DNA from: Candidatus Taenariivivens baikalensis
GTDB taxonomy: Bacteria > Omnitrophota > Omnitrophia > Omnitrophales > Aquincolibacteriaceae
DNA: 64,000 nt
Assembly (NCBI GenBank): GCA_009691445.1
Contig: SICL01000004.1
Coordinates: 30,708 to 94,707 of the forward strand
Direction: 5' to 3'
The notes under the pieces were generated by a model, which did no database searches, had not been told where the DNA came from, and worked only from the letters and a program-made list of their open reading frames with translations. How positions within the stretch are numbered: position 1 is the first letter of the stretch; each line of letters starts with the position of its first letter. Shown one piece after another: positions 29,634-48,988 of the stretch. Both the position numbers and the translations under genes were made by a program.

Positions 29634-30590
29634 ATGAAAGAGGAGAATCCTTTGCCCCAAAACACCTTGTCCGACCCCGCTGAATCAATAGAAGGCTCCG
29701 CTTCAGCCCCCATATCCGACGTTACTCGTGCAGATAAAAGCACTCATCCCACGAGAAAACCCACTGCTTTTGACTGGCCCGTTGCGCTTTTCATGGTAGG
29801 TGTCCACCTAGTTGCTCTCTTGGGCTTTTTTACTTTTTCCTGGAAAGCACTTGGCGTATGTTTGCTGCTTCACTGGATCACGGGCGGACTAGGAATCACT
29901 CTTTGTTATCACCGGCTTTTGACGCACCGAAGCTTTCAAACTCCGAAGTGGATGGAATATTTTTTGTCGATACTCGGCTCTTTAGCCTGCCAAGGCGGTC
30001 CCTTAACTTGGGTTGCGGTTCACCGGATGCATCACGCTCAGTCAGATCAACCCTTAGATCCACACAGCCCACGTCATGGTTTTTTCTGGGCCCATATGGG
30101 TTGGTGCCTTCACGCCGTCACGGGAGTCGCCACCTCTGAAGAAAAAACGAAGCTAGCTCCAGATCTCGCCAAAGACCCTGTCCACGCATGGCTCGATAAA
30201 GTGCAGCTTATTTGGTCTGCTCCTTTAGCTTGGGGACTTTACGCTTTAGGCGGATGGCCTTTTGTTATTTGGGGCATTTTCGTAAGACTCGTCACGGTTT
30301 ATCACACGACATGGGCTGTCAATTCGGCGGCTCACGTATGGGGCTATAAAAATTATAAAAGCGACGACGATTCAACGAATCTCTGGTGGGTCGCGCTCGC
30401 AACTTTCGGTGAAGGATGGCACAACAACCATCACGCGTTTCAATTCTCCGCCAGACATGGCCTCAAGTGGTGGGAGCTTGACGCTACTTATTTAACCATT
30501 CAGCTTCTTGAAAAACTAGGGATTGCTACCGCCATAAAACTCCCCTCTCAACATCTCTTGAATACTAAACTCCCCTCTCATTCGCGTTAA
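29634..30590 (+). CDS. membrane fatty-acid desaturase, delta-9 acyl-lipid/acyl-CoA desaturase family
   Basis: The 318-aa ORF has three His boxes (HRLLTHRSF, HRMHHAQSD, HNNHHAF) and hydrophobic segments. The spacing matches the stearoyl-CoA desaturase/DesC-like family. Confidence 0.85.
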   Translation: MKEENPLPQNTLSDPAESIEGSASAPISDVTRADKSTHPTRKPTAFDWPVALFMVGVHLVALLGFFTFSWKALGVCLLLHWITGGLGITLCYHRLLTHRSFQTPKWMEYFLSILGSLACQGGPLTWVAVHRMHHAQSDQPLDPHSPRHGFFWAHMGWCLHAVTGVATSEEKTKLAPDLAKDPVHAWLDKVQLIWSAPLAWGLYALGGWPFVIWGIFVRLVTVYHTTWAVNSAAHVWGYKNYKSDDDSTNLWWVALATFGEGWHNNHHAFQFSARHGLKWWELDATYLTIQLLEKLGIATAIKLPSQHLLNTKLPSHSR

Positions 30591-30931: not shown

Positions 30932-31181
30932 TTTCATAAAAGAGCTTTCCGTGGTCAGCAATCGCCTTGCCGTAAAAAATAATTAGCCACGTGGTTTTTT
31001 TTCTGAAAGCTGGTTGCTGACAGCAGAAAGCTCTTGCTGTAGAATTACGAAAAATCAGGGGCGATTCTCCGGCGCATTCATCGCCTTGTCAAATATTGAA
31101 AATATTCAATCCGAATTAACGAGAATGAAATCGTTTATGACCTACCGGCAGGCCGGGAACCGTCCCTAAAATGGAGAGCTT

Positions 31182-31843: not shown

Positions 31844-31871
31844 TTGACATTTTTCAGTGATTCGGGATAAT
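31844..31871 (+). promoter_or_regulatory. putative atp operon promoter TTGACA-N16-GATAAT, overlapped by the palindrome TGTCAAattgtctgTTGACA
   Basis: Hexamers were read from the sequence about 75 nt upstream of the first atp-cluster ORF. An inverted repeat overlaps the -35 element. Confidence 0.5.
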
Positions 31872-31944: not shown

Positions 31945-32190
31945 TTGACCAGCCAAGAAGGTAATTCCTACCGTTTATTGTGGATGCTTGGAGCTGTCAT
32001 GACACTCCCTGTCATTTTAATAAGCGGTCCCTTTGCCGGATATTTGCTGGGTCATTTTATTTTCTATAAATATTTTGGGATGCCCAAGTGGGGCGTATCC
32101 GCTTTGATCGCATGCGGATTTCTTGCCTCGGGCTTACAAGTGTTTCGATTAATCAAACGCATTAAAGATTCGGATTCGAAAAAGAATTAA
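31945..32190 (+). CDS. small 2-TM membrane protein, AtpZ/AtpI-like (ATPase_gene1 family), preceding atpB
   Basis: The 81-aa ORF has two predicted TM helices and a basic C-terminus. It is positioned immediately upstream of atpB (1-nt gap). The family assignment rests on position and topology only. Confidence 0.5.
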   Translation: MTSQEGNSYRLLWMLGAVMTLPVILISGPFAGYLLGHFIFYKYFGMPKWGVSALIACGFLASGLQVFRLIKRIKDSDSKKN

Positions 32191-32191
32191 T

Positions 32192-33013
32192 ATGCCTCAC
32201 GAAGAAGCCGCCGTAGAACACGTCAAGCATCAAGCGCACGAACTTCCCAATCTCATTACGCTTCTTCATGAAAATTTCGAGCACGCCCCCGTTGTTCAGT
32301 TTCTACATCAGTGGGAAAATATTCTTTTCTCTCTCGTCGCCATTTCTCTTCTCGGAATGCTTGCCTTGGGCGGCGCCAAAGCCAACCGTCTGATTCCCGA
32401 AGGCGTTCAAAATTTATTTGAAGCGATCGTGGAAGGAATCACGGGATTCGTCACTGGAATTTTGGGAGAGCAAGGAGAAAAACATGTCCCGTTTTTAGGG
32501 ACGCTCTTTCTTTATATTCTTTTCATGAACTGGATTGGCCTGGTCCCGCTCATGAAGTCCCCCACCTCGGCCTGGAGTACGACGATTGCCGTGGGTCTCA
32601 TTACCATGTTTTATGTTCAAATCACCGGCATCCGCGAACAAGGATTCTTCAATTATCTGAAACATGTCGCGGGCAATCCCTCCAATGGTTTTGGCATTGT
32701 CCTAATTCCTCTGATGCTGGTTTTAAATATTATTCTGGAATTTGGCGCCGTCCCATTTAGTTTGTCGCTTCGTCTTTTTGCCAATGTGTCCAGCGAAGAC
32801 CGTTTACTTTTTAACTTCGCAAGCTTGGATGTGGCGCGGCCGTTTTTACCTTTGTTCTTTCAATTATTTGCGAATGTTCTCGCGATTATTTTTAGTATGG
32901 TGCAAGCGTTTGTGTTTATGCTGCTTTCCACCGTTTACTTGTCGCTTGTGATGCCGCACGGAGATCACAAGCATGAGGATCACGGAGAAGCGGCCGGACA
33001 CCCGGCTCACTAG
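32192..33013 (+). CDS. atpB: ATP synthase Fo subunit a
   Basis: The conserved Arg-containing helix LSLRLFANV and other subunit-a TM segments are present. The C-terminal tail HGDHKHEDHGEAAGHPAH is unusual. Confidence 0.92.
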   Translation: MPHEEAAVEHVKHQAHELPNLITLLHENFEHAPVVQFLHQWENILFSLVAISLLGMLALGGAKANRLIPEGVQNLFEAIVEGITGFVTGILGEQGEKHVPFLGTLFLYILFMNWIGLVPLMKSPTSAWSTTIAVGLITMFYVQITGIREQGFFNYLKHVAGNPSNGFGIVLIPLMLVLNIILEFGAVPFSLSLRLFANVSSEDRLLFNFASLDVARPFLPLFFQLFANVLAIIFSMVQAFVFMLLSTVYLSLVMPHGDHKHEDHGEAAGHPAH

Positions 33014-33059
33014 GTTTTTCATTTAGTCATCAACAGCAAAAATCAAAAAGGAGAAGTTC

Positions 33060-33290
33060 ATGGATCCTAAAAGTTTTATCGCAATCGGTGCCCCGCTCGT
33101 TCTCGCATTAACTGCCATGGGATCGGCCGCGGCCTTGGGAAAATCTGTCGCAGCAGCGATGGATGCTACCGCTCGTCAACCGGAAGCCTCCACCAAGATT
33201 CTTGTGAACATGATGGCCGGCTGCGCTTTGATTGAAGCTCTCACGCTTTACGCCCTTGTGTTTGGTTTTTCGCTTTTGGGAAAACTGTAG
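33060..33290 (+). CDS. atpE: ATP synthase Fo subunit c
   Basis: The 76-aa hairpin proteolipid has GAPLVLALTAMGSAAALG and the conserved carboxylate in LIEALTLYALV. Confidence 0.95.
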   Translation: MDPKSFIAIGAPLVLALTAMGSAAALGKSVAAAMDATARQPEASTKILVNMMAGCALIEALTLYALVFGFSLLGKL

Positions 33291-33311
33291 TCCGGAAACG
33301 GTTGAACGTTT

Positions 33312-33809
33312 ATGGATTTTTTTAAGCAGAACATCGTACCGGGAGAAGTCCTCATTCAGCTCGTTGCTTTTTTGGTTGTGTTCTTCACACTCAAAAAGCT
33401 CGCCTGGAAACCTGTGCTTACCGCCCTTGAAGACCGGCGCAAACGGATTCAAGACGAGTTCGCGCACCTTGAAAAAACCAGGCAGGAGCTTGAAGCCTTG
33501 AGGGCAGATTACGCTTCCAAACTTCAGAAGATTGAAGATGAGGCGCGCCTCAAGATTCAGCAGACGATTGAAGAAGGCCGCAGGATCGCCAAAGACATCC
33601 AGGACAGGGCCCGCTCCGAAGCTCAGGAAACTTTCGAGAAATCCAAAGAACATCTGAGCGTGGAAGTGGCCAAGGCACGCGTGACCCTGAAACAGGAAAT
33701 CGCGGCGCTGGCTCTTCAAGTGGCGGAAAAAGTCATCGGCGAAAAAATGACCGAGGAACTGCATCAGCACAAGGCGATTCAGATTATTGAGGAGCTTGAG
33801 AAACTATGA
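33312..33809 (+). CDS. atpF: ATP synthase Fo subunit b
   Basis: An N-terminal TM helix is followed by a long charged coiled coil (165 aa). Confidence 0.9.
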   Translation: MDFFKQNIVPGEVLIQLVAFLVVFFTLKKLAWKPVLTALEDRRKRIQDEFAHLEKTRQELEALRADYASKLQKIEDEARLKIQQTIEEGRRIAKDIQDRARSEAQETFEKSKEHLSVEVAKARVTLKQEIAALALQVAEKVIGEKMTEELHQHKAIQIIEELEKL

Positions 33810-34342
33810 TCGATCACCGGGTCAGCCGCAGATATGCGGGCGCTTTGATCGGCCTCGTAACTCAGGCAGATGATCTCGAGCGCGTGGATCAGGATTTCAC
33901 CAAAGTCCGGCAAATGATCGGTCAGTATCCGGAGATCACGCATCTGGCTTTGAATTCCACGATTTCCCGGGCAGAGAAAGAGGATTTTATCGAAAAAATC
34001 TTCGGTCCGGAAGTGAGCGGGATCATGATCCATTTTCTCAAGGTGTTGATTGAGAAACACCGCTTTGCCCAGTTGATCGGCATTCAGGAAGAGTTTCACC
34101 GTCTTTATGAAAAGAAAAAAGGCATTCAGCAAGTGGATGTCATTACCGCTGCTGCGCTGAATCCTAAGACCGAAGAGCGCTTGATCCAGGCGCTTCAGAA
34201 AAAATTCCGGACAGAAATCCGGCTTCAAACGCATGTGAACCCCGCGATTCTGGGAGGAATGATCCTTCGTTTCGGCGGGAATGAAATTGATGCAAGCTTT
34301 AAGGACCGACTTTTAAAAATGCGGCGGCTTTTGCTGGCTTAA
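33806..34342 (+). CDS. atpH: ATP synthase F1 subunit delta (OSCP)
   Basis: The 178-aa ORF overlaps the atpF stop. It has delta/OSCP family features and the canonical position before atpA. Confidence 0.88.
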   Translation: MIDHRVSRRYAGALIGLVTQADDLERVDQDFTKVRQMIGQYPEITHLALNSTISRAEKEDFIEKIFGPEVSGIMIHFLKVLIEKHRFAQLIGIQEEFHRLYEKKKGIQQVDVITAAALNPKTEERLIQALQKKFRTEIRLQTHVNPAILGGMILRFGGNEIDASFKDRLLKMRRLLLA

Positions 34343-34355
34343 TATTATGAATAAT

Positions 34356-34425
34356 GTCATTGCGAGCGAAGCGAAGCAATTTCAGCGCTAAGATTGCCGC
34401 GCTCGCTCCGCTCCCTCGCAATGAC
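34356..34425. repeat. Family-A 70-bp nested palindromic element (GTCATTGCGAG ... CTCGCAATGAC) inside the atp operon between atpH and atpA
   Basis: 11-bp perfect terminal inverted repeats are read directly from the sequence. A near-identical copy in opposite orientation lies at 54761-54830. Confidence 0.85.
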
Positions 34426-34438
34426 AAATTAGGAGAAC

Positions 34439-35947
34439 ATGATGCTAAAACCCGAAGAAGTTACACAAGCAATTCAGGATGAAATCAAAAAATACAGCTC
34501 CAAACTTGAAATGGAGTCCGTGGGTTATGTGCTTCAAGTCGGCGATGGCATTGCGCGCGTCTACGGTCTGGATCAGGTCATGGCCAATGAAATGGTCACC
34601 TTTCCCGATCAAACCATTGGGCTGACCCTGAACCTCGAGCCCGACAATATCGGAATCGTGATCCTGGGACCGGACCGTAATATCAAAGAAGGCGACCAAG
34701 TCAAACGCACGGGCCAGATCGCCCAAGTACCCGTCGGAATCGAACTGCTTGGCCGCATTATTAATCCCTTAGGATTGCCGTTGGATGGTAAGGGGCCAAT
34801 CACGTCAACTAAGAACCGCCCGCTTGAAACCGTTCCTCCTTCCGTGATTCGCCGCCAGCCCGTTAAAGAACCTCTACAAACAGGAATCAAGGCCATCGAT
34901 GCCATGATCCCAATTGGACGCGGGCAACGTGAACTCATTATCGGCGACCGGCAAACCGGAAAAACCGCCATCTTGATTGACACGATCATCAATCAAAAAA
35001 ATTCTGGTGTTTTTTGTATTTATGTCGCCATCGGCCAGAAACTTTCCAGTGTCGTTGCCCTGGCACAAACACTTGAAAAGCACGGCGCTATGGCATACAC
35101 CACGATCGTCTGCGCTTCATCGGATGACGCGGCTCCGCTTCAATACTTGGCTCCGTACGCCGGATGCGCCATTGGGGAAGAGTTTATGTATACAGGTAAA
35201 CACGCGCTCGTGGTCTACGACGATCTCTCCAAACACGCCGTGGCTTACCGCGAACTCTCACTTCTCTTGCAGCGTCCTCCCGGCCGTGAAGCCTATCCGG
35301 GTGATGTGTTTTATCTTCACTCCCGTCTTCTTGAGCGCGCGGCAAAAATGCGGGAAGATTTGGGTGGCGGATCTCTCACCGCGCTTCCCGTCATTGAAAC
35401 TCAGCTTGGCGACGTGTCGGCTTATATCCCCACCAATGTAATTTCAATTACCGATGGTCAGATTTATTTGGAAAGTGATTTATTCTATTCGGGGGTGCGT
35501 CCTGCCATTAACGTGGGTCTTTCGGTATCCCGTGTCGGCGGAAACGCTCAGACTAAAGCCATGAAGCAAGTCGCGGGGACGCTTCGTCTCGCGCTCGCCC
35601 AGTACCGTGAACTGGCGGCCTTCGCGCAACTCTCCACGGATCTTGATCAGACCACCAAGGATCAGCTTATCCGCGGAGAGCGCATGGTGGAAATCTTGAA
35701 ACAGGGTGTTTTTCAACCGCTTCCGTTTGAAAAACAGGTGATGATCATTTTTGCCGCCAATATCGGCGCACTTGATGATATCCCGCTCGCCAAGCTCAAG
35801 GACTTTGAGACGGGCCTTTACCCGTTTATCACAAAAAACTACCCCGACGTAGAACACAAAATCCAAAAAGAAAAGGCCCTGAGCGATGCCCTTAAGGCCA
35901 CCCTCACGGAAGCCATTAAGAAATACAAAGGACAACTGACCCAATAA
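34439..35947 (+). CDS. atpA: ATP synthase F1 subunit alpha
   Basis: The ORF has the Walker A GDRQTGKT and a 502-aa alpha-family sequence. Confidence 0.98.
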
Positions 35948-36070
35948 CCAAGATCCAAGAAACAATAACCAAAGAATGACCAAATTCCAAATTTTCAATT
36001 TTTTATTTGAAATTTTAATGATTGATTATTGTTTGGTGTTTGTATCTTGGTGATTGGTTATTAGAACACT
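35948..36070. repeat. Family-B long imperfect hairpin (CCAAG/CCAAAT-rich arm then TTGG/ATTTGG-rich arm) between atpA and atpG
   Basis: The inverted-repeat arms are read directly from the sequence. Related copies lie at 38469-38560 and 62594-62685. Confidence 0.7.
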
Positions 36071-36988
36071 ATGTCAGGCAAATTAAGAGAACTCAAAAAC
36101 CGGATCCGCAGCGTTGAGAATACAAAAAAGATCACGCGTGCGATGGAAATGGTAGCGGCCTCCAAGCTGCGCCGCTTTCAGACCCTGATGTCCCAAGCCC
36201 GTCCCTACACACTGGGATTGGAAAGCCTGCTGAAGCGCTTGAACCAGAATCTGCCTTCCAAGAGTCATCCTTTTTTTGAATCTCGGGAAGAAAAAAAAAT
36301 CGGTGTGGTTTTGATGACTTCGGATTCTGGACTCTGCGGTTCGTACAATCTTGATCTGCTGGAACATACGCGGGATTTTCTCCGTGAAAATAAATCAGAA
36401 AAAATATGGATTGGAGTGGGCAAGGCCGGCATTGCTGAACTGCGACGTCTTGGTTGCAAGATTCATAAGGAGCTGATTGAAATTCGGCCAGCGCGGTTCG
36501 ATGAGATTTTGAACGACCTCAAATCGATGCTCGAATCTCTTTTCCTGAGCAGGCAGGTGGACGCGGTTTATGTGATCTACAGTCACTCGTTGACGTCTTC
36601 AAGCTTTGCGGATGTTACCGAGAAACTGTTGCCGCTGGCCCAACCCGCCTCTACGCCCGTCATCGCGAACGAAGAGAAGCAATCTAACGCCGTTATTGCT
36701 CCTCGCAATGACAAAGAGCAAGACGTGGATTATATCTTTGAACCTTCGCCGGCATTTATTTTTGATAAGCTAATTCCGCTTTATTTTGAGTCTAAAGTAA
36801 GACAAGTGTTTCTCGAAGCCATCGTCTCCGAGCAGATTGCCCGTATGACGGCCATGCACGCCGCCACGCAAAACGCCAAAGAGATGATCAGCTCGCTTGT
36901 CTTGGAACGCAACAAAGCGCGCCAGGCTTCGATCACTAAAGAAATTATTGAGATTGTGTCGGGCTCTCAAGCCCTAAAAATAAAGTGA
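36071..36988 (+). CDS. atpG: ATP synthase F1 subunit gamma
   Basis: The gamma-family N- and C-terminal coiled-coil helices are present (MSGKLRELKNRIRSVENTKKITRAMEMVAASKLRR...). Confidence 0.95.
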   Translation: MSGKLRELKNRIRSVENTKKITRAMEMVAASKLRRFQTLMSQARPYTLGLESLLKRLNQNLPSKSHPFFESREEKKIGVVLMTSDSGLCGSYNLDLLEHTRDFLRENKSEKIWIGVGKAGIAELRRLGCKIHKELIEIRPARFDEILNDLKSMLESLFLSRQVDAVYVIYSHSLTSSSFADVTEKLLPLAQPASTPVIANEEKQSNAVIAPRNDKEQDVDYIFEPSPAFIFDKLIPLYFESKVRQVFLEAIVSEQIARMTAMHAATQNAKEMISSLVLERNKARQASITKEIIEIVSGSQALKIK

Positions 36989-37010
36989 GGCGTCTTTCGT
37001 GAAGCGTTAA

Positions 37011-38468
<1,458 letters not shown>

Positions 38469-38560
38469 GACCTGGCAAATTCCAAATCTTAAGCACCAAA
38501 TACCAAGTCCTTGTTTGAGATTTGAAATTTGTTTTTTGGATGTTGTTTGGAATTTAGGAT
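38469..38560. repeat. Family-B long imperfect hairpin between atpD and atpC
   Basis: The AAATTCCAAAT... arm and ...TTGGAATTT arm are read directly from the sequence. It is followed by a U-rich tract and the atpC ATG. Confidence 0.7.
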
Positions 38561-38581
38561 TTGGTTCTTGGAATTTATTTT

Positions 38582-38845
38582 ATGAATAACAATTTTCATC
38601 TTAAAGTTGTTACCCCCAAAGGTCCGGCGCTGGAAGAGGACGTCCTGTATGCTTTGCTTCCCGATGAGCGGGGTTTCGTGGGGGTGTTGACGAATCACGC
38701 TCCGTTTGTGATTTCTTCTCCCGGAGGAAAAATGGTGCTGCGGCTCAAGGACGGTCAGGAAAAGACCTATCAGATCGGCGCGGGTTTTTTTGAAGTGGCT
38801 CACAACCAAGCTGTGTTTCTCGCACAATCCTTTCAGGGAGTGTAA
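38582..38845 (+). CDS. atpC: ATP synthase F1 subunit epsilon, truncated form with beta-sandwich domain only
   Basis: The 87-aa ORF starting at the ATG (MNNNFHLKVVTPKGP...) matches the epsilon N-terminal domain. The C-terminal two-helix inhibitory domain is absent because nuoJ starts right after the stop. Confidence 0.85.
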   Translation: MNNNFHLKVVTPKGPALEEDVLYALLPDERGFVGVLTNHAPFVISSPGGKMVLRLKDGQEKTYQIGAGFFEVAHNQAVFLAQSFQGV

Positions 38846-39343
38846 TTGGACGCTTTTATTTTTTATTTCTTTGGCGGCCTCGCCGCAGTAAGCGCCCTTG
38901 CCGTGATCCTGCTTCGCCAGCCCGTGCGTGCCCTGCTCTCCCTGATTGTAACCATGATCTCTTTATCCGTTCTTTATCTCAGTCTGGGCGCGCCCTTTGT
39001 CGCGATGGTGAATCTGATTGTGTACGCGGGCGCGGTGTTGGTGCTTTTTCTCTTCGCCATCATGCTTCAGGGAATCGGAGCCCGGGAAATTGATCTGGGA
39101 AAGCGTTTTCATCCGGCCTTTATTCCTGGCGTGATTTTAACGATTTCTTTTTTTGATTTTGGATTTCTTAAACTTATTCGCCGGTTTCCAGAACTTCATT
39201 TCCAGGATGTCGCAGGCTCCGCACGCCAGGTGGGAAAAACACTTTTCACGCAGTACCTGCTTCCCTTTGAACTCGTTTCGATTCTTCTGATCCTGGCCAT
39301 TTTAGCGGCAGTGGCCTTGGCCAAGAGAGAGGATTCAGCATGA
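38846..39343 (+). CDS. nuoJ: NADH-quinone oxidoreductase subunit J
   Basis: The NuoJ/ND6-like TM protein has a TTG start that immediately abuts the atpC TAA stop (taaTTG). Confidence 0.85.
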   Translation: MDAFIFYFFGGLAAVSALAVILLRQPVRALLSLIVTMISLSVLYLSLGAPFVAMVNLIVYAGAVLVLFLFAIMLQGIGAREIDLGKRFHPAFIPGVILTISFFDFGFLKLIRRFPELHFQDVAGSARQVGKTLFTQYLLPFELVSILLILAILAAVALAKREDSA

Positions 39344-39642
39344 TCACACCCCTTCATTATTTGGGACTAGCCGGGATTCTATTTTCAATCGGACTTCTCG
39401 GGCTAATTATCCGCCGCAATATTCTTTTAGTTTTACTTTCCGTGGAACTGATGCTGAATGCAGCAAACCTGGTCTTTGTCACCGGCGCTCATATCCACGG
39501 ACAAGTGAACGGCCAGGTGCTTGCTTTTTTTGTGATGGTGATCTCGGCCGCGGAAGTAACGATCGGGCTTGCCCTCACGGTTTTACTATTTCGGAAACAA
39601 GATTCGGTGGATACCAATGAGATCCGCTGTTTGAAAGGATAA
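39340..39642 (+). CDS. nuoK: NADH-quinone oxidoreductase subunit K
   Basis: The 100-aa 3-TM NuoK/ND4L family ORF has the conserved Glu in LLSVELMLNAANL. Confidence 0.9.
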   Translation: MITPLHYLGLAGILFSIGLLGLIIRRNILLVLLSVELMLNAANLVFVTGAHIHGQVNGQVLAFFVMVISAAEVTIGLALTVLLFRKQDSVDTNEIRCLKG

Positions 39643-39653
39643 AAGAGCAGGAT

Positions 39654-41510
39654 ATGCTTACATTGGCCTGGACAATACTATGGATTCCGTTCATTGCGGC
39701 GGTCTTGATCACACTCTTCCTGCTCAATAAGCCGCGCGCGGCTGGCTGGCTGGCCACGGGCGTCCTCTTTGCGGGATTTATCTGCACACTTAGGATCTTG
39801 TCTCATGCCCAGTTTGAATCCTTGAACCATTCCCCTCTTGAGTCTTCCATTGTATGGCTCTCTCTCGGCGGACACGGCGTCATTGAATTCGGAATCCTGC
39901 TCAACGGCCTCTCGATTTTGATGCTCCTGATTGTCACCGGCATCGGCAGTCTGATTTTTCTCTACTCCATTTCCTATATGAAAGAAGACAAAAGCGCAGG
40001 CCGCTATTTCGCCTGCCTTTCGCTTTTTGCTTTTTCGATGCTGGGCATTGTCCTTGCAAACAATTTGGTCCAGGTCTTTATCTTCTGGGAATTAGTTGGA
40101 CTGAGCTCTTACCTTCTCATCGGATTTTGGTATGAAAAAGATTCTGCGGCGATGGCAGGGAAAAAAGCTTTTCTCACCAATCGCGTCGGCGACATCGGGA
40201 TGATGATTGGAATCCTTCTTCTGTTTCATCAAATCGCCACAAATCACATTGGTTCCGTAAATTTCCTGACACTGGAAGGGCGACTTCCTCATGCCGGAAT
40301 TTCCGAGGGAATGCTGGCGGCCATCTCGCTTTTAATCTTTTGCGGCGTGATGGGAAAATCCGCCCAGGTTCCGCTTCATGTCTGGCTTCCCGACGCCATG
40401 GAAGGTCCCACGCCCGTCAGCGCGCTGATGCATGCCGCCACCATGGTCGCCGCTGGAGTTTTCCTTCTTGCCCGTCTCTATTTTCTTTTTGCCGCCAGCC
40501 CCTCAGCGCTTCACATTATTGCCTGGATCGGCGTCGTGACTGCTTTTCTGGCCGGAACGATGGCTCTGGTGCAAAACGATATTAAAAAAATCCTCGCCTA
40601 TTCCACGTTAAGTCAACTCGGATACATGGTCATGGCCATTGGTCTTGCCGACCGCAATGCCGGAATGTTTCATCTCACCACGCATGCTTTTTTCAAAGCC
40701 TTGCTTTTTCTCGCAGCCGGCAGTCTCATTCACGGCATGCACACCCAGGACATCTGGGAAATGCGCCGCTTTCCAAAAACCCTCAAACACATGCTTGTCA
40801 CGAGCTTCACATTTTTGATGGGCACTCTGGCGCTGATGGGAATTCCTCCTTTCAGCGGCTACTTCAGCAAAGAGGAGATTTTAAGCGCGGCCACGCACGG
40901 CCCCAAACTTCTCCTTATCATCGCTCTAAGCGTTGTCTTCTTGACGGCTTTTTATATGGGCCGGCTTTGCACGATTGTCTTTTTTAGCCAAACCGCCAAA
41001 GAGGAACATCATCACGCGCATGAATCCGACGGCTTCATCCTGTTCCCTCTCGCAGTCTTGGCTGTCTTTTCCATCGCCGGGGGATATTTACCCATAAAGG
41101 AAATACTGGGCCACAGCGCACACGCCGCCGCTCATCATGGAGGAAATCTTCTCGCCATTATTTCCGTTTCCCTCGGCCTGATCGGATTTGGAACAGCTTT
41201 TCTGGTCTTCCGAAAAGCTCAAGGGCCCGTGCTTGGCGAAAATTCATTTCCCTCTATCGTTCTGGACCACAAATACTTTTTTGATGAGCTTTATGACGAT
41301 CTAATCCGGTATGGCCAGGAATCCATCGCGACTTTTTCAGACGCGTTTGAACGCCATGTCGTCGTTCAATTTGCCTCCAATGGCACAGCCTCAGCAGCCC
41401 GCTCGCTGGGACAGCTTTTATCCCGGCTTCAAACCGGCGTGGTTCAGTTTTATGCTTTGGTCTTTGCCGTCGGTGTAACGGTTTTAGTGTTTTTGTTAAT
41501 GTTACGGTGA
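39654..41510 (+). CDS. nuoL: NADH-quinone oxidoreductase subunit L
   Basis: The 618-aa antiporter-like subunit carries the C-terminal long amphipathic helix extension characteristic of NuoL. Confidence 0.9.
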   Translation: MLTLAWTILWIPFIAAVLITLFLLNKPRAAGWLATGVLFAGFICTLRILSHAQFESLNHSPLESSIVWLSLGGHGVIEFGILLNGLSILMLLIVTGIGSLIFLYSISYMKEDKSAGRYFACLSLFAFSMLGIVLANNLVQVFIFWELVGLSSYLLIGFWYEKDSAAMAGKKAFLTNRVGDIGMMIGILLLFHQIATNHIGSVNFLTLEGRLPHAGISEGMLAAISLLIFCGVMGKSAQVPLHVWLPDAMEGPTPVSALMHAATMVAAGVFLLARLYFLFAASPSALHIIAWIGVVTAFLAGTMALVQNDIKKILAYSTLSQLGYMVMAIGLADRNAGMFHLTTHAFFKALLFLAAGSLIHGMHTQDIWEMRRFPKTLKHMLVTSFTFLMGTLALMGIPPFSGYFSKEEILSAATHGPKLLLIIALSVVFLTAFYMGRLCTIVFFSQTAKEEHHHAHESDGFILFPLAVLAVFSIAGGYLPIKEILGHSAHAAAHHGGNLLAIISVSLGLIGFGTAFLVFRKAQGPVLGENSFPSIVLDHKYFFDELYDDLIRYGQESIATFSDAFERHVVVQFASNGTASAARSLGQLLSRLQTGVVQFYALVFAVGVTVLVFLLMLR

Positions 41511-41650
41511 CTTAAAGAGGGAAGAAAAGGGATGAAGATGAAAAAGGAAGAAGGTGGAAGAAGAGGGAGAAATCTTTTTTCGTTTTTTAATTCCTTCTTT
41601 TCCCCTGTTCTTCCTTCTTGTTACACCTTTTTCCCTTCGGGAATAACTTT
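41511..41650. repeat. A 57-nt polypurine tract followed by a T-run and a roughly 50-nt polypyrimidine tract, forming an imperfect long hairpin or triplex-prone mirror between nuoL and nuoM
   Basis: Plus-strand aagagggaagaaaagggatgaagatgaaaaaggaagaaggtggaagaagagggagaaa is followed by ttccttcttttcccctgttcttccttcttgttacaccttttcccttc. Confidence 0.7.
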
Positions 41651-43105
41651 ATGATTCTCTTATTGCCCTGGATTCCTTTTTTGGCCGCGTTTCTCATTAT
41701 GTTAGCGCCGCGGGAAAAAGAATTTCTTCATAAACAAATTGCGGTAACAAGCTGTGCCGTGAATTTCGCGATCGTCCTTTGGCTCATCTTCCATTTTCAC
41801 CCGGAAGTCCCGGGTTATCAGTTTGCTCATCGTTACCCTTGGATTCCCTTTTTAGGCATTCATTATCAGGTCGGGTTGGACGGCATCAACATGACGCTTT
41901 GCCTGCTCCACGCATTGGTGTCTTTTACCGGAGCGATTGTCAGCTGCTGGCCCAAGGACCGGATGAAAGAATATCTTTGTTTTTACCTCATCCTGACTGG
42001 TGCCATTTACGGCGTCTTTACGGCGCTCGATGTGTTTCAGCTCTACCTTTTCTATGAGCTTACTTTGATTCCGCTTTATCCGATGATCGTGATCTGGGGA
42101 AGTAAAAATAAAGCTTACGGCGCCATGAAGCTGACTTTGTTTATTACCGGCGGCGCGATGCTGGCCCTTTTTGGAATCTTGATCCTTTACCGCAATCTTG
42201 GTCTGCAGAGCTTTGACCTGCTCGAGATGCGAAAAAATATCGAGATCCTGCCCATGAATCCAGGTACGGTCCATGGATTGGCCGGAATTTTCCTGGTGGG
42301 ATTTGGCGTGATCGCTTCCTTGTGGCCACTGCACAGTTGGTCGCCGATTGGTTACGCGGCTGCGCCAACCTCCGTCAGCATGCTTCACGCAGGAGTGCTC
42401 AAAAAAATGGGACCCTATTTAATGCTGCGTCTTGCCGTCGCTCTGCTTCCGGACGGCGTTCACTACTGGGCCAATACCCTTGCGGTTTTATCCTGCGTCG
42501 GTATCCTGTACGCGGGTTACGCCGCGGTCAAACAACAGGACCTTAAATTCATGATTGGTTTTTCCAGTGTCAGCCATATGGGTTATATCCTGCTTGCGAT
42601 AGCCGTCATGAATCAAGCCACGCTTTCCGGGGCCGTACTCCTCATGTTTTCTCACGGCGTTATGGCTGCGACCACATTTGCCTGCATTGGATTTATCTAT
42701 GAGCAAACACACGCCCGCGGAGTGAATGATTTCGGAGGGCTTGCTAAAAAAATCCCATTCATTTCCACCTGTTTGATTATGGCTTCCTTTGCTTCGCTCG
42801 GACTTCCTGGCTTTTCCAATTTTGTCGCAGAACTTCTGATCTTCTTTGGAAGCTGGTCGCAATATCCCATCATCGTGTCTCTGGCGATCTTTGGCGTATT
42901 TATCACCTCGCTTTATTTACTGCGGATGGTGAAATCCGTTTGCTACGGTGCAGAAAATCCTCGCTGGAGTTTGCTTCATGATGCCAGGACCATTGCCGAC
43001 AAACTGCCCTTTGTTATTCTCCTTGGAGCACTCATGCTTTTTGGATTTTGGCCTCAGGGCCTGCTTCGTATGATTCAGCCTGCGGTTGGAGCCCTGCTCT
43101 CATGA
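41651..43105 (+). CDS. nuoM: NADH-quinone oxidoreductase subunit M
   Basis: This is an antiporter-like NuoM/ND4 family ORF. The ATG at 41651 (MILLLPWIPF) is preferred over the track's upstream TTG, which lies inside the pyrimidine tract. Confidence 0.88.
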   Translation: MILLLPWIPFLAAFLIMLAPREKEFLHKQIAVTSCAVNFAIVLWLIFHFHPEVPGYQFAHRYPWIPFLGIHYQVGLDGINMTLCLLHALVSFTGAIVSCWPKDRMKEYLCFYLILTGAIYGVFTALDVFQLYLFYELTLIPLYPMIVIWGSKNKAYGAMKLTLFITGGAMLALFGILILYRNLGLQSFDLLEMRKNIEILPMNPGTVHGLAGIFLVGFGVIASLWPLHSWSPIGYAAAPTSVSMLHAGVLKKMGPYLMLRLAVALLPDGVHYWANTLAVLSCVGILYAGYAAVKQQDLKFMIGFSSVSHMGYILLAIAVMNQATLSGAVLLMFSHGVMAATTFACIGFIYEQTHARGVNDFGGLAKKIPFISTCLIMASFASLGLPGFSNFVAELLIFFGSWSQYPIIVSLAIFGVFITSLYLLRMVKSVCYGAENPRWSLLHDARTIADKLPFVILLGALMLFGFWPQGLLRMIQPAVGALLS

Positions 43106-44559
43106 TGAACCTTCGCTATCTCTTACCAGAATGGGTGGCGCTAGGTGTCTTTATTCTTCTACTCATCGCGGAGATTCTCAAGGGTGATGTAAAACATCCG
43201 GACGCTCAGAATATCCGCTCTTTTTGTATCACGAGTCTTCTGGGAAGCATCCTTGTCTGCATATCGACTTTGCTCTTCTTGAAAAAAACAGGGACGGCCT
43301 TTGGCGATTCATTTATCGTGGATCCGCTCTCCGCATTTTTTAAACTATTTTTCATCTTGACGCTTTTTATGATGATTCCGATCAGCTATGCCTTCTTTAA
43401 CAAACGCCGTGAACGTCTTGAAACATTTCTACTCATTCTCTGGTGCACCCTGCTTGGGATGTTTTTCCTGGCCTCGGCCAACGATCTCTTTGTCCTGTTT
43501 CTGTGCATTGAAATTATCACGCTGTCGTTTTATATAATGGCTGCCTATCTCAAGCACGAACTTCCCTCAATTGAATCAGGCCTGAAATACCTGATCATCG
43601 GATCGCTCGCCTCTGCTTTTCTGGTCTTTGGGATTGCTCTGATCTACGCAGCCGTGGGATCCACAAATCTTCCTGTCCTTCATCAGGCATTTGTGGCTCA
43701 CCCCGGTGACCGAATGCTGGTGCTTGGCATGCTCTTCATTATTGCCGGCCTTGGTTTCAAAATCGGCGCTGTGCCGTTTCATCTCTGGGTTCCGGATGTT
43801 TATGAAGGCGCTCCGATTCCAACCGTAGCCTTCCTTTCCGTCGGATCCAAGGCCGCTGGAATTTTTGTCCTGCTCCGCCTTCTCTTCCAGGTTTTTGTTC
43901 TAACCGACAGCCAGCGCGCACTGCTTTTCTCTACACTCTCGGCCCTGACCATGATTTGCGGAAATTTTGGAGCTCTAAAACAAACCAGCCTCAAACGGCT
44001 TTTGGGATATTCGAGTATCGCTCACGCGGGTTATCTGCTCATTGGATTTGCGGTCGGATATAGCGGAGGTATCACCGGGGTGCTTTATTATTTGCTGGCT
44101 TACGCCGCGGCAAATCTCACGATCTTTCTTGTGATGGCGATTGTGGATCGGCACCTGCAAAGCGACCGGATCGAGGCTTACGCAGGTCTGGCACAGCGCT
44201 CGCCAATACTCGGCGCCTGTTTTTTTATTGCCCTGCTTTCTTTGGCCGGAGTTCCCGGCACCGCTGGATTTTTCGGAAAGTTTTTAATCCTGCTTGCGGC
44301 CGTCCATGGAGGTTTTCTATGGCTAACGCTTCTAGGTCTCGTGGGCGTCGTGGTCTCACTCTACTATTATTTAAGCGTCGTGCGTGTGATTTACGCGGAA
44401 GAACCGGCGTACGATGAAGCTATTCCAGTTCCTCTTTCCTACCGGCTCACTTTAATCCTTCTCGTGGGAGGAATTTTCGTACTCGGTCTTTTCCCGGCTC
44501 CGTTTCTTCTCGGGTGTTATCACACCGCCTTCATGCTTTTTCAGACTCCGCTGTCGTAA
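43102..44559 (+). CDS. nuoN: NADH-quinone oxidoreductase subunit N
   Basis: This is an antiporter-like NuoN/ND2 family ORF. The ATGATG start overlaps the nuoM stop, and the track's longer N-terminus is probably a read-through artefact. Confidence 0.85.
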   Translation: MMNLRYLLPEWVALGVFILLLIAEILKGDVKHPDAQNIRSFCITSLLGSILVCISTLLFLKKTGTAFGDSFIVDPLSAFFKLFFILTLFMMIPISYAFFNKRRERLETFLLILWCTLLGMFFLASANDLFVLFLCIEIITLSFYIMAAYLKHELPSIESGLKYLIIGSLASAFLVFGIALIYAAVGSTNLPVLHQAFVAHPGDRMLVLGMLFIIAGLGFKIGAVPFHLWVPDVYEGAPIPTVAFLSVGSKAAGIFVLLRLLFQVFVLTDSQRALLFSTLSALTMICGNFGALKQTSLKRLLGYSSIAHAGYLLIGFAVGYSGGITGVLYYLLAYAAANLTIFLVMAIVDRHLQSDRIEAYAGLAQRSPILGACFFIALLSLAGVPGTAGFFGKFLILLAAVHGGFLWLTLLGLVGVVVSLYYYLSVVRVIYAEEPAYDEAIPVPLSYRLTLILLVGGIFVLGLFPAPFLLGCYHTAFMLFQTPLS

Positions 44560-44724: not shown

Positions 44725-45324
44725 ATGAAACAATCCTACACCACTTCAGAAGCTGCGGAAATTTGCCGAGTCTCCCGCGGAACTATCCTGCGCTGGATCC
44801 GCGAGAAAAAATTAAAAGCCTCCGTCACTTTTGGTGGTCATCACCGCATTGAAGCCGTCGACCTTACCGGGGTATTAGAAAAACTGGGAATGAAACTGCC
44901 TGACAGTTTTTCGGCGTTTTCCCGCTGTTTACCCTCCCGGGTACTGCTTGTGGATGAGGAGGAGGAAATTGGAAAATTAGCCCGTCATTATTTACAAAAA
45001 TATTATCCTGCCTTGCAAATTGAAGAAGCCGCTGACAGTTTCAGTGCCGGCATTACCATCCAAAAATACCGCCCGGATCTTATTGTTCTGAATATCATGC
45101 CTCCCGGTATACAAGGCTATGATCTGTGTGAATCTATTCGAAATTTGTCGCGGGAATACAGGCCGGCCATTCTTGCCATCACGGCGCATGAAAACAACTG
45201 GGAACACCGCATCTTGGAAGCGGGAGCCGATCTGTGCCTAAAGAAACCGTTTCATGAGAACGATTTTATCAGTGCGATTAGAATTCTCTGGAATAGCACC
45301 TATAAAAATAAAAGGGCGGGATGA
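44725..45324 (+). CDS. HTH (excisionase/MerR-like) plus atypical receiver-domain regulator. The phospho-acceptor Asp is replaced by Asn.
   Basis: The N-terminal TSEAAEICRVSRGTILRWIREKKL helix-turn-helix is followed by a CheY-like fold with the VDEEEE acidic pocket, and with T and K conserved (AITAHE, LKKPF). The D57-equivalent position reads LIVLNIMPPG instead of LLDxMP. Confidence 0.75.
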   Translation: MKQSYTTSEAAEICRVSRGTILRWIREKKLKASVTFGGHHRIEAVDLTGVLEKLGMKLPDSFSAFSRCLPSRVLLVDEEEEIGKLARHYLQKYYPALQIEEAADSFSAGITIQKYRPDLIVLNIMPPGIQGYDLCESIRNLSREYRPAILAITAHENNWEHRILEAGADLCLKKPFHENDFISAIRILWNSTYKNKRAG

Positions 45325-45343
45325 ACTTTTGATAGAGAAAAAT

Positions 45344-48300
45344 ATGACCAACAATCCAAAGACATGTCATAAAAAAATAATGTGGAATAGAGGTGTTCTG
45401 AAGGACCGTTTTGCGCCGTTTCTTTTACTCTTGACCTGTTTAAGCCTGACAACAGTGGGTTTCGTCTTTCTCAGTCGCATGACCCATGAAAAAGCATCCC
45501 TTAAGTTTGAGTCGGAATGGCGGGATATCAAGGCCAGGATCCAGACCCATGTCAATATGTACACTGAACAGCTTTACGCAAACCGCGCGCTCTTTGCCGC
45601 AAGTAAGAGTGTTGAACGTAATGAGTGGGCGTCGTTTATAAACAACCAACGTCTCTCAAGTCAGTTCCCAGGAATTGTCGCAAGTGAATTTATTGAATCG
45701 GTTTCAAGCGACGCATTGGGGGACTTTATCCGCTCCGTCAAAGAGGATAAGAGCATCGATCCAGAAGGATATCCCACATTTGATGTCTTCCCCAAACATC
45801 AAACAAAAAATCATTATATTGTCACTTATGTTGAGCCTTTTACGTCTAATCGAAAAGTGTTTGGATATAACATGTCTTCAGACGGCATGCGTTCTGAGGT
45901 TTTGCAAAGAGCCGCTGAAACCGGAAAAGCTGTAGCCACAAGCAAGATTCACCTTATTCAAGATCCGTCCCATGCGGGCCTAATCATCGCTTTGCCCATC
46001 TATAAAAACAAACTCCCCGTTACCAACAAGACAGAGCGGTTAACTGCGCTTCAGGGGTTCGTCGCAAGCGTCATCGATACTTCTGCTTTTTTTAGACACG
46101 ACTTCATTCTGTCCACGGCTACCAACCAAATCGGTTTTGAGATTTTCGATTCTGCCCTGACAACCAAAGATCACCTCTTGTTTAATTTTGATCATTCGCT
46201 CAATTCCACAAATCAACACGACAAGGCGAAGTTCTCGGTCAACACGCCGATGGTGATCGGAAACCGAACATTCATCCTGAACTTCACAGCCTCACAAAAT
46301 TTCCGTCTGGGTGAGGGACAGGAGTGGTTTCCCTACTGGATTTTAGGCATCGGTATCCTCACCAGCTTTCTTTTTTTCACCCTTCTGCAAGTTTTAGCCT
46401 CGAGAGAATCCAAAGCCCTGCAATATGCTGACGAAAAGACGGAGGAAATTAAACTGCTGCTTGAGGCTTCAACGGACGGCATCTATGGAATTAATCTCGA
46501 AGGTCGGTTTACTTTTATGAATTCTGCCGCGCTTCAATTGCTGGGTTACGCTCTTGAGGAAGTTATCGGAAAAAATATTCATCACTTAGCTCATTTAAAA
46601 AAGTTAGACGGTGCCCCCTACCCCATCGAAGATTGCCCGATCTATCAAGCATTTCAATCTGGAATCTCCTGCCGAGTCGATACTGAGGTTTTGTGGCACA
46701 AAGACGGAACCTCCTTCCCCGTCGAATATTCTGCTTCACCGATGATTCGCCGGGGAAAGATATTAGGGTCATTGTGTACTTTTAGTGATATCACCGAGCG
46801 TAAAATAGCAGAGGAAAAATTAGCTCGAGCGGCAGCGGAAGCCGAAATTTTGCATCAAGCAGCTACTTTCGCCACACGGGATCTCACCTTTGATGTGGCC
46901 CTTAAAGAAACGCTTGCCTTAGTTTGTCAGGGTATCCATTGGCCCGTGGGACATGTCTGTAAATTGTCCCCCGATCACAAGGGCTTGGAATCCACCGATA
47001 TCTGGTATTTGAACGATCCAGAAAAGTACCACCCCTTCAAAAAATTGACGGAAAGTTTATATTTCCCTATCGGAACGGGGCTGCCCGGACGCATTGCCCA
47101 ATCTCGTGACATTGCTTGGATTGATAATGTGCAGAATGACCATAATTTCCCGCGAAAACAAGTTTGCGCCGAAGTCGGTATTACCTCTGCTTTTGCTTTT
47201 CCGATTACGATTGAAGGACGGGTCGTTGCGGTTTTAGAGTTCTTCATCCCCAAAGCACTAAAACCGGATGCGGACATTTTGAAACTCGTGGGCAATCTCT
47301 CAAAACAACTTCAAGTGGTTTTTGAGAAAAAAAGGGCGGCGGAAGCGGCGGAAGCGGTGGAAGCAAGCCGTCTCCGGCTGCAGGCTGTTTTGGATTCTGC
47401 CACAGAAGTTTCCATTATTACAACAGACACTCAAGGGCTTATCACCGTCTTTAACAAAGGAGCAGAAAAAATGCTGGGCTGGAAAGCAGAGGAAATGCTT
47501 TACCAGAAAACGCCGGAGGTTATTCACACTTTTGAGGAAGTCTCCGAGCGGGGAAAAGAAATGTCTCTCACTTCAGGGAAAACTGTGGAGGGATTTGAAG
47601 TTTTTGTGGCCAATGCGCGTGCAGGAAAGCCTCAGCTCAGGGAATGGACTTACGTCAAAAAAGACGGCACCCGTTTCCCCGTCAGTCTTTATATTACGGG
47701 AGTGTACAATGCCAGCCATGAGCTTTCTGGCTTTTTGGGAATCGCTACGGATATCACAAAAATTAAACAAGCTGAAATTCAGCTTCAAGAAGCGGCGCGT
47801 CAAGCATACGAAGCGTCGCGTATAAAATCTGATTTCTTAGCCACCATGAGCCATGAAATTCGTACGCCAATGAACGCCATTCTCGGAATGAGCGACTTAC
47901 TGACCGAGACGCCTTTGACGGCTGAACAAAAAGACTATCTGGCACGATTATCCCGCGCGGGCGAGACTCTTTTAAGCATTATTAATGACGTGCTTGACCT
48001 TTCAAAGATTGAAGCCCGCTCCATGGAGATTGAGCATATTGCATTTAATTTAAAAGAGCAGGTAGGAAAAACGGTCGACTTGCTGGCCTCTAAAGCTCAT
48101 CAAAAAGGGCTCGCGATTCATTGGCAGCTCGACCCAGAGATTCCGGCGATACTGCAGTCTGACCCAACCCGCTTGTGGCAAATCCTGCTGAATTTGATCA
48201 ACAATGCCATCAAGTTTACTGAGGAAGGTGAGATTTCCTTGTCGGTAAAACCGGTAAAAAAGGAGATTGAACATAAAGAGAAAAATGAAATTTGGCTTCA

Positions 48301-48988
48301 CTTTGCTCTGTCGGATACCGGAATTGGCATTCCGAGAGATAAAATAAACAAACTATTTAAGCCGTTCGCGCAGGCCGATTCATCAACGACGCGAAAATTC
48401 GGCGGTACCGGTTTGGGCTTAAATATCTGCAAACGGCTTGTGGAGCTGATGGGAGGAAAGATTTGGGCGGAAAGCGAGGAAGGAAAAGGTTCCTGTTTCC
48501 ATTTTATTCTCCCCTTTGGGAAATCAGATACGCTTCAGGAAAAGGCCCTGGAGACAGCTTCCGAAGACTCCCCCTTGGCATCAAGTCTAAAAATTCTTCT
48601 TGCGGATGACTCCGAGGACAATCAGAGTCTCATCCAGGCTTATTTGAAGAAATATCCTTATCAAATTGACATCGCAGAAAATGGAAAAATTGCCTGCGAC
48701 AAATCGGCCGCCACGGAGTACGATGTCATCTTGATGGATATGCAAATGCCGGAAATGGACGGCTATACCGCCTCTCGAATTATTCGCGAACGAGAAGCAA
48801 TCGGCGGCCCCAAACGGCATGTGCCGATTATTGCCCTGACAGCCAACGCATTAATTCAGGACGCTCAAAGATGTCTCGCCGCTGGCTGCGATCAGCATCT
48901 TTCGAAACCCATCAAAAAATCGATTTTGTTACAAACTTTGCAGTCGATATCTATAAAAAGGCTGCTTGAAAGGCGGGGACTAAAATGA
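45344..48988 (+). CDS. hybrid sensor histidine kinase: TM-CHASE-TM-PAS-GAF-PAS-HisKA-HATPase-REC
   Basis: A CHASE-like periplasmic region lies between two TM segments. It is followed by PAS-like, GAF-like and PAS-like segments, the H-box SHEIRTPMN, N/G-box ATPase motifs (NNAIKFT, GGTGLGL) and a C-terminal receiver (LLADDSEDN...DVILMDMQMPEMDG). The ATG at 45344 is preferred because the track's ORF runs into the upstream gene. Confidence 0.9.
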   Translation: MTNNPKTCHKKIMWNRGVLKDRFAPFLLLLTCLSLTTVGFVFLSRMTHEKASLKFESEWRDIKARIQTHVNMYTEQLYANRALFAASKSVERNEWASFINNQRLSSQFPGIVASEFIESVSSDALGDFIRSVKEDKSIDPEGYPTFDVFPKHQTKNHYIVTYVEPFTSNRKVFGYNMSSDGMRSEVLQRAAETGKAVATSKIHLIQDPSHAGLIIALPIYKNKLPVTNKTERLTALQGFVASVIDTSAFFRHDFILSTATNQIGFEIFDSALTTKDHLLFNFDHSLNSTNQHDKAKFSVNTPMVIGNRTFILNFTASQNFRLGEGQEWFPYWILGIGILTSFLFFTLLQVLASRESKALQYADEKTEEIKLLLEASTDGIYGINLEGRFTFMNSAALQLLGYALEEVIGKNIHHLAHLKKLDGAPYPIEDCPIYQAFQSGISCRVDTEVLWHKDGTSFPVEYSASPMIRRGKILGSLCTFSDITERKIAEEKLARAAAEAEILHQAATFATRDLTFDVALKETLALVCQGIHWPVGHVCKLSPDHKGLESTDIWYLNDPEKYHPFKKLTESLYFPIGTGLPGRIAQSRDIAWIDNVQNDHNFPRKQVCAEVGITSAFAFPITIEGRVVAVLEFFIPKALKPDADILKLVGNLSKQLQVVFEKKRAAEAAEAVEASRLRLQAVLDSATEVSIITTDTQGLITVFNKGAEKMLGWKAEEMLYQKTPEVIHTFEEVSERGKEMSLTSGKTVEGFEVFVANARAGKPQLREWTYVKKDGTRFPVSLYITGVYNASHELSGFLGIATDITKIKQAEIQLQEAARQAYEASRIKSDFLATMSHEIRTPMNAILGMSDLLTETPLTAEQKDYLARLSRAGETLLSIINDVLDLSKIEARSMEIEHIAFNLKEQVGKTVDLLASKAHQKGLAIHWQLDPEIPAILQSDPTRLWQILLNLINNAIKFTEEGEISLSVKPVKKEIEHKEKNEIWLHFALSDTGIGIPRDKINKLFKPFAQADSSTTRKFGGTGLGLNICKRLVELMGGKIWAESEEGKGSCFHFILPFGKSDTLQEKALETASEDSPLASSLKILLADDSEDNQSLIQAYLKKYPYQIDIAENGKIACDKSAATEYDVILMDMQMPEMDGYTASRIIREREAIGGPKRHVPIIALTANALIQDAQRCLAAGCDQHLSKPIKKSILLQTLQSISIKRLLERRGLK

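Follow-up and report, generated by a model that had tools for sequence, protein, structure and literature searches.

The window, by which we mean the whole stretch of DNA analyzed here (64,000 nucleotides of contig SICL01000004.1 from Candidatus Taenariivivens baikalensis), contains 14 co-oriented genes at positions 31945-44559 of the forward (+) strand. Open reading frames (ORFs) and Pfam and NCBIfam assignments place them in the order atpZ-B-E-F-H-A-G-D-C followed by nuoJ-K-L-M-N, so that the genes of an F-type (F1Fo) ATP synthase continue into five genes of respiratory complex I: NuoJ, NuoK, and the three antiporter-like proton-pumping subunits. The host is an Omnitrophota bacterium of deep, oxic Lake Baikal water, and the window proteins correspond to the NCBI entries MSR77053-MSR77067 of a “Candidatus Omnitrophica bacterium” metagenome-assembled genome (MAG), encoded on a 105,395-bp contig. 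On one side, the operon is flanked in the window by genes for ribosomal proteins, rpoBC, and tuf; its neighbors on the opposite side are two-component, outer-membrane, and housekeeping genes.

The ATP synthase genes for subunits a, c, b, delta, alpha, gamma, beta, and epsilon are all found in one cluster and in the canonical order. The Pfam families PF00119, PF00137, PF00430, PF00213, PF00006 (with PF02874 and PF00306), PF00231, and PF02823 are represented across the cluster, and several of these assignments have been made on the identical genes of a contig from ENA sample ERZ1305449. The first gene of the operon (31945..32190) encodes a small AtpZ/AtpI-like membrane protein whose match to PF09527 is weak and below the cut-off (E 0.003); an atpZ-like gene is also kept at the operon start in two related loci, L002 and L003 (39-49% identity). 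It is followed by atpB for Fo subunit a (32192..33013, assigned by synteny and by PF00119 on the identical ERZ1305449 gene), atpE for the 76-residue Fo subunit c (33060..33290, PF00137), atpF for Fo subunit b (33312..33809, PF00430), and atpH for delta/OSCP (33806..34342, PF00213). The F1 genes are atpA for alpha (34439..35947, NCBI protein MSR77061.1), atpG for gamma (36071..36988, PF00231), atpD for beta (37050..38468, starting at TTG 37050 or ATG 37056), and atpC for an 87-residue epsilon consisting of the beta-sandwich domain only (38582..38845, PF02823, NCBI protein MSR77064.1). The best sigma-70-like promoter match in the region, TTGACA-16-GATAAT at 31844..31871 (+), lies ~75 nucleotides 5' of the first operon gene and fits the consensus at 11/12 positions. 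It is no more than a match to the consensus, and matches of this kind are no more numerous in the region than in shuffled sequences.

The five nuo genes follow on the same strand. NuoJ (165 residues, 38846..39343) scores 116.9 bits against PF00499 (cut-off 33.2), passing the Pfam threshold but remaining below the NCBIfam equivalog cut-offs. NuoK (100 residues, 39340..39642) matches the equivalog model NF004320 with 114 bits (cut-off 57), and its translation carries Glu36 and Glu72, which we take to be equivalent to the corresponding residues of Escherichia coli NuoK. NuoL is full length (618 residues, 39654..41510, NCBI protein MSR77067.1) and matches the equivalog model NF005141 with 616 bits (cut-off 556); since the match spans positions 3-611 of the 615 in the profile, the C-terminal extension is present. 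NuoM (41651..43105) scores 419 bits against TIGR01972 (cut-off 263.8). Its longest ORF begins at TTG 41618, but the TIGR01972 alignment begins only at ORF residue 16, and the 484-residue product from ATG 41651 has the same length as the orthologs in two relatives (L082 and L171); ATG 41651 is thus most likely the start codon, as judged from these alignments. NuoN (43102..44559) scores 384 bits against TIGR01770 (cut-off 332.6), and of its two candidate start codons ATG 43102, giving 485 residues, is predicted as the more likely one rather than TTG 43048, where the longest ORF begins.

At the boundary between the two gene sets, the TAA stop codon of atpC (38843-38845) is immediately followed by the TTG start codon of nuoJ (38846-38848), leaving zero spacer. 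An AGGGAG Shine-Dalgarno-like motif is located at 38835-38840, inside the last atpC codons and 5 nucleotides 5' of the TTG; motif, stop, and start together occupy 38835..38848 (+). The use of TTG 38846 as the nuoJ start is supported by the conservation of the NuoJ N-terminus, since the first 20 residues are conserved among 22 homologs; F6 and Y7 do not vary at all, and M1 hardly does. A preliminary description made from the window alone had reported this abutment, and a direct reading of the sequence bears it out. Its further statement that the atp operon is “translationally fused” to nuoJKLMN is right in that the stop and start codons abut, but no fused protein is encoded. Likewise, the overlaps it ascribed to the following nuo genes exist between nuoJ and nuoK (4 nucleotides) and between nuoM and nuoN (a 4-nucleotide ATGA, identical in L082), but nuoK and nuoL are 11 nucleotides apart and nuoL and nuoM ~140 nucleotides apart (with nuoM read from ATG 41651), the latter gap containing a long hairpin.

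Because the window sequence comes from a MAG, the junction could in principle be an assembly or binning chimera of two unrelated operons. However, the identical junction has been found on four further contigs of the same population in three datasets, namely two contigs from ENA sample ERZ1305449 and Logan contigs from the runs SRR8561391 and SRR8561390, which are DNA metagenomes of bathypelagic Lake Baikal water from depths of 1250 and 1350 m. In addition, more than 20 diverged contigs of other samples carry the same gene order, and the GC content is even across the junction. The recurrence of the junction on independently assembled contigs excludes an assembly error at 38845/38846, which the preliminary description had named as a possible flaw, and a chimeric origin is hardly conceivable.

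The linkage of atp and nuoJKLMN recurs in ~25 related contigs, most of which have no more than 24 nucleotides between atpC and nuoJ, and those contigs that bear a name belong to Omnitrophota. The complete order atpZBEFHAGDC-nuoJKLMN is kept in L002 and L003, whose NuoJ proteins are 48% and 59% identical to that of the window, in L082 (Omnitrophota assembly GCA_030698625.1), in L083 (a 376-kb JGI contig) and L084 (a 328-kb ENA contig), and in L171 (GCA_973527125.1). An epsilon-centered scan of metagenome contigs returned 28 loci with an epsilon at least 45% identical to that of the window, 26 of them with enough downstream sequence to be informative. In 23 of these 26 loci nuoJ is located 3' of atpC, and in 20 of the 23 the two genes either overlap (ATGA type) or are at most 24 nucleotides apart; in the other three, nuoJ lies beyond an intervening spacer or gene. 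The three informative loci without nuoJ have other genes 3' of atpC. Since the epsilon sequences of the linked loci are only ~45–60% identical, the tight spacing has outlasted considerable sequence divergence. Hence the arrangement is retained in orthologous genomes, a point that had been raised for checking.

Outside this lineage the arrangement appears to be rare, as had been supposed. A multi-phylum genome scan with the NuoJ profile listed 80 nuoJ loci among its matches, mostly from other phyla, which serve as a contrast set and not as a census. Among these listed loci, at least 50 have nuoI directly upstream of nuoJ, while atpC is found upstream only in L002 and L003 and is absent from this position in the other 78. 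The order atp-nuoJKLMN is thus unusual but common to the lineage, and the machinery it encodes is ordinary.

The interruptions of the linkage differ from one another. In L094 (positions 678-1891), two minus-strand ORFs lie between atpC and nuoJ. In L107, a pair of short ORFs, HTH-like (helix-turn-helix) and toxin-like as judged by eye from the translations, is found 3' of atpC, with no nuoJ within 1.4 kb. L097 and L117 have other genes 3' of atpC and no nuoJ.

No nuoA-I gene has been found anywhere in the 64-kb window, in agreement with the preliminary description, which had concluded that the peripheral-arm genes and nuoA/H must be elsewhere or missing. They are elsewhere. The MAG of the window itself encodes NuoH (MSR77765.1) and NuoI (MSR77775.1), whose accessions fall into one block with MSR77053-77067, and a 33–36 kb contig of ERZ1305449 carries a nuoD fragment followed by nuoE-F-G-H, ~8.5 kb of sensor-kinase and other genes, and then nuoI, with no nuoJ. 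This contig begins inside nuoD, so nuoA, nuoB, and nuoC are not seen there. In relatives, loci with nuoA-H have been reached with a NuoH profile search, and the search for NuoI and inspection of its context revealed Omnitrophota loci (L085-L087) with the order nuoA-B-C-D-(E)-F-G-H, a few unrelated genes, and a lone nuoI, again without nuoJ. Two relatives carry all pieces on a single contig. In JAUYMS010000003.1 (151,531 bp), nuoABCDEFGH lies at ~26.3–33.5 kb and atp-nuoJKLMN-nuoI within 117–138 kb on the other strand. In CCXXEX010000101.1 (47,103 bp), nuoA-H is followed ~7 kb on by a lone nuoI, with atp-nuoJKLMN converging from the other end. In L082, nuoN is closely followed by a gene for a clear NuoI of 184 residues, which in L083 lies 4 kb 3' of nuoN and on the opposite strand; its product matches that of the gene found directly 5' of nuoJ in the usual nuo operons of other phyla. 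Partner subunits are thus encoded in the same genome (nuoD-I in the MAG of the window, nuoA-I on the same contig in relatives), and in place of one contiguous nuoA-N operon the set occurs as nuoA-H, nuoI, and atp-nuoJKLMN. Neither in the window nor in relatives does nuoA-I adjoin the operon, which disposes of the suggestion that the arrangement might be an ordinary nuo operon in inverted order. The nuoA-H piece comprises the NADH-oxidizing and quinone-reducing modules together with the proximal membrane subunits. As neither the nuoA-H nor the nuoI loci have their own nuoJ-N, the gene sets complement one another, which indicates that the lineage encodes a single 14-subunit complex I whose genes are divided into three pieces. 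Of the two options left by the preliminary description, the split nuo locus is therefore the one supported.

The other option, a complex-I-related module of different composition, would make NuoJKLMN a separate module working without NuoA-I, either an Mrp-like cation/proton antiporter or the membrane part of an enzyme of the Mbh/Mbx/Hyf/Ech/Fpo type, co-regulated with the ATP synthase. The physical separation of nuoJKLMN from nuoA-I and its tie to atp across the lineage would fit such a module, as would a weak, sub-threshold match of NuoJ to MbhD and the homology of NuoL, M, N, and K to MrpA, D, and C. However, the profile scores point to complex I. NuoK and NuoL pass the NCBIfam equivalog cut-offs, and NuoM and NuoN pass the TIGRFAM subfamily cut-offs; NuoK, NuoM, and NuoN pass Nuo cut-offs only. 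NuoL, which clears its own threshold, remains far below those of MrpA (324 bits, cut-off 1104), HyfD (280 bits, cut-off 430), and FpoL (392 bits, cut-off 1050). No MrpA with fused MrpB accompanied by MrpE/F/G, and no hydrogenase or F420 partner module, has been found in the window or in related loci, and no mrpE/F/G, hydrogenase, or other partner genes lie beside the operon at any locus. The complementary nuoA-H and nuoI loci of the same genomes argue in the same direction. A module independent of NuoA-I is accordingly improbable, and an Mrp, Mbh, or Hyf identity of nuoJKLMN has been rejected in view of the profile scores and the gene neighborhood.

The best explanation of these observations, to which we assign a probability of roughly 0.85, is that the 14-subunit nuo set has been split and its distal membrane module appended to the atp operon, giving a 14-gene oxidative-phosphorylation operon, while complex I is otherwise ordinary. 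It is not a new kind of complex. We infer that the 14 genes are co-transcribed, that atpC and nuoJ are translationally coupled, and that the subunits assemble into a single complex I. The zero spacer, the abutment kept in relatives, and the promoter-like site 5' of atpZ are indirect indications of one transcription unit from atpZ to nuoN. RNA polymerase would start 5' of atpZ, where the best consensus match is located, and would read through atpC into nuoJ, because the junction has no room for a terminator or a promoter. Ribosomes ending atpC could reinitiate at the abutting TTG, aided by the GGGAG motif. In this way the cell would produce the distal proton-pumping module of complex I along with the ATP synthase, the consumer of the proton gradient. 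The redox modules and NuoH would come from a locus of their own and NuoI from a third one, and NuoJ-N would combine with NuoA-I produced at these other loci into a normal complex I.

Alternatively, the adjacency could be the scar of a neutral rearrangement, with nuoJKLMN having its own internal promoter and being expressed independently of atp. This explanation is consistent with the generally scattered nuo genes of the phylum, with nuoI standing alone, with the few lineages that tolerate inserted genes or lost linkage, and with a fatty-acid desaturase ortholog that lies between nuoH and nuoI in some genomes and 5' of atp in others. The promoter-like matches, being no commoner than in shuffled sequences, are uninformative on an internal promoter. 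On the other hand, a short gap or overlap in 20 of the 23 linked loci despite the divergence of epsilon would not be expected of a scar, and with zero spacer in the window any promoter would have to sit inside atpC. We therefore regard a neutral scar as unlikely.

Several observations weigh against a split complex I whose distal module is expressed with the ATP synthase. The runs that span the junction are DNA metagenomes and are silent on co-transcription. The window and the contig with nuoH and nuoI are connected through their common accession block and sample rather than through a closed genome. The linkage is lost or interrupted in L094, L097, L107, and L117, which indicates that tight linkage is not obligatory. 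No convincing intrinsic terminator is predicted 3' of nuoN. Finally, hairpins between the genes could attenuate or process the transcript, or set the mRNA stability of its segments, and nuo expression may for this reason not simply follow that of atp.

The hairpins are found in four spacers of the operon. One with 56-nucleotide arms fills the atpA-atpG spacer (35943..36062, +; -41.2 kcal/mol, z -6.4), and another lies between atpG and atpD (36982..37040, +; -29.5 kcal/mol, z -5.2). The hairpin in the atpD-atpC spacer (38469-38581; -28 kcal/mol, z -1.8) is not clearly above shuffled sequences. The nuoL-nuoM spacer contains a purine/pyrimidine hairpin (41541..41619, +; -52.1 kcal/mol, z -2.65), for which an Rfam search of the spacer returned only plant microRNA hairpin matches at chance level. 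These intercistronic hairpins are absent from the same spacers in relatives, where the genes abut, and are specific to the lineage of the window; they are therefore not part of a conserved design. Further long low-complexity intergenic hairpins lie outside the operon at 30940-31035, 58977-59051, and 399-464. The intergenic hairpins may be REP-like (repetitive extragenic palindrome) elements or elements that stabilize or attenuate mRNA; Rfam contains no counterpart of them.

The epsilon subunit of this ATP synthase is also of interest. The 87-residue protein matches only PF02823 (positions 1-79 of 80), and its similarity to the NCBIfam epsilon models is limited to their first ~80 positions. Against solved epsilon chains, which have 133–139 residues, the alignment covers residues 3-82 and confirms the earlier observation that the protein is reduced to the beta-sandwich and that the C-terminal helical domain is absent; in other words, it lacks the two-domain structure of beta-sandwich and C-terminal helical hairpin known from the well-studied bacterial enzymes. 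The orthologs in four relatives have 86–93 residues, and among the epsilons of the metagenome scan with 44% identity or more, nearly all end no more than 8 residues past the end of the alignment. More distant matches either have the usual ~53-residue tail or are short in other lineages without nuoJ downstream (L119 and L122-L128, several of them from gut metagenomes). Since the short form is found across the lineage and also elsewhere without nuo genes, it is neither a truncation caused by the junction nor unique to the clade. The short epsilon is a separate trait of the lineage, and its domain content implies an ATP synthase that would work without epsilon-mediated autoinhibition. Naturally short epsilons, represented by the 88-position model NF009983, are like that of the window in being single beta-sandwich domains of ~85–93 residues, but the window protein scores 36.5 bits against a cut-off of 106 and is not a member of the NF009983 family. 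Feniouk, Suzuki and Yoshida (2006) reportedly described a short epsilon for Chlorobium and Bacteroides. A citable statement on naturally short epsilons has not been found in our literature searches.

The loss of this domain could also be viewed as part of a wider rewiring, in which NuoJKLMN would be co-assembled with or beside F1Fo as a local proton circuit (“synthasome”), or would also serve as a stand-alone antiporter module, made with the ATP synthase even when the NADH-oxidizing part is absent. We consider this very improbable.

The c subunit encoded by atpE (33060-33290) has the conserved carboxylate in a ...LIEALTLY... motif and, as judged by eye, Ala and Leu at the positions of Ser and Thr in sodium-binding c subunits such as that of the Ilyobacter tartaricus enzyme. 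This comparison suggests that the ATP synthase of the window is proton-coupled rather than sodium-coupled.

Additional features have been observed around the nuo and atp loci. Directly 3' of nuoN (44725-48988), the window encodes an HTH-receiver response regulator and a 1244-residue CHASE-PAS-GAF hybrid histidine kinase, which are probably outside the operon, since the downstream neighbors vary among relatives. The lone nuoI of Omnitrophota repeatedly adjoins genes for peroxiredoxin (AhpC/TSA), Fur, and ferritin (L085:8884-10555, L089:16390-18616, and the ERZ1305449 contig), which suggests that this Fe-S subunit is under iron or oxidative-stress control, apart from the other nuo genes. The fatty-acid desaturase ortholog mentioned above is located 5' of atp-nuoJKLMN in the window (29634-30590), L082 (668-1513), and L083 (426-1454), and between nuoH and nuoI in L086 (9099-9989) and L087 (9121-9960). 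The proteins from the two placements are 53–64% identical, and those of L086 and L087 are 70% identical. The gene order is desaturase, atp-nuoJ-N, nuoI, and a giant ORF in L082, and nuoA-H, desaturase, nuoI, and a giant ORF in L087. These placements hint at an ancestral supercluster that may have been broken up later. The giant ORFs near the nuo and atp loci of relatives (L082:16617-20501, L086:10638-20543, L087:10942-20537, and L088:1-1312 and 14027-21113) have products of ~4,000 to >12,000 residues, in line with published reports of very long proteins in Omnitrophota.

Since complex I and the ATP synthase are textbook machines whose mechanism is unchanged here, the interest of the locus is in genome organization. 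A lineage of an uncultured phylum has detached the three-pump block nuoJKLMN, attached it to the atp operon, and kept it there despite sequence divergence. This provides a natural experiment on the modular expression and assembly of complex I, in which the distal arm would be made with the proton consumer and the redox modules separately. There is also a consequence for annotation, since split nuo sets are easily misread as incomplete in surveys of KEGG Orthology (KO) or module completeness; complex I of Omnitrophota has been called “fragmentary” in one genomic study (bioRxiv 10.64898/2026.06.07.730766). That study mentions the F-type ATPase but not the atp-nuoJKLMN arrangement, and the same is true of a second genomic study of the phylum, which mentions complex I and the F-type ATPase (PMC10066038). 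Literature searches on Omnitrophota nuo and ATP synthase genes and on nuoJKLMN have found no description of an atp-nuoJKLMN operon; the term nuoJKLMN does occur in Streptomyces papers. Split nuo/ndh sets and naturally short epsilons are already known, while a conserved gene order with nuoJKLMN separated from nuoA-I and placed at the end of a complete atp operon appears to be undescribed. We know of no earlier description of such a spacer-free, lineage-conserved linkage.

In comparison with known systems, the gene content and order of the atp part are identical to those of the canonical atpI-B-E-F-H-A-G-D-C operon, including the small atpI/atpZ-like first gene, but the operon of the window continues past atpC and its epsilon has no C-terminal helical domain. 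The canonical nuoA-N operon of the 14-subunit NDH-1 (E. coli, Thermus thermophilus) shares with the lineage the same 14 families, the internal order J-K-L-M-N, and the usual small overlaps. On the other hand, the set of the lineage is broken after nuoH and after nuoI, and nuoJ follows atpC instead of nuoI. Split sets of complex I genes are represented by the cyanobacterial and chloroplast ndh clusters, the nuo loci of Aquifex, and the second partial nuo clusters of Streptomyces. In these scattered sets, several loci likewise encode one enzyme, but here the distal block is joined without a spacer to a complete atp operon and the linkage is kept across the lineage. The nuo and atp genes are also neighbors on one strand in Acidobacteriota (L008, L034, L041, L043, and L070), which shows that nuo-atp neighborhoods are not unique to Omnitrophota. 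In those loci, however, the order is the opposite: a complete, unsplit nuo operon ends with nuoN, and atpB follows ~1 kb on, beyond a spacer.

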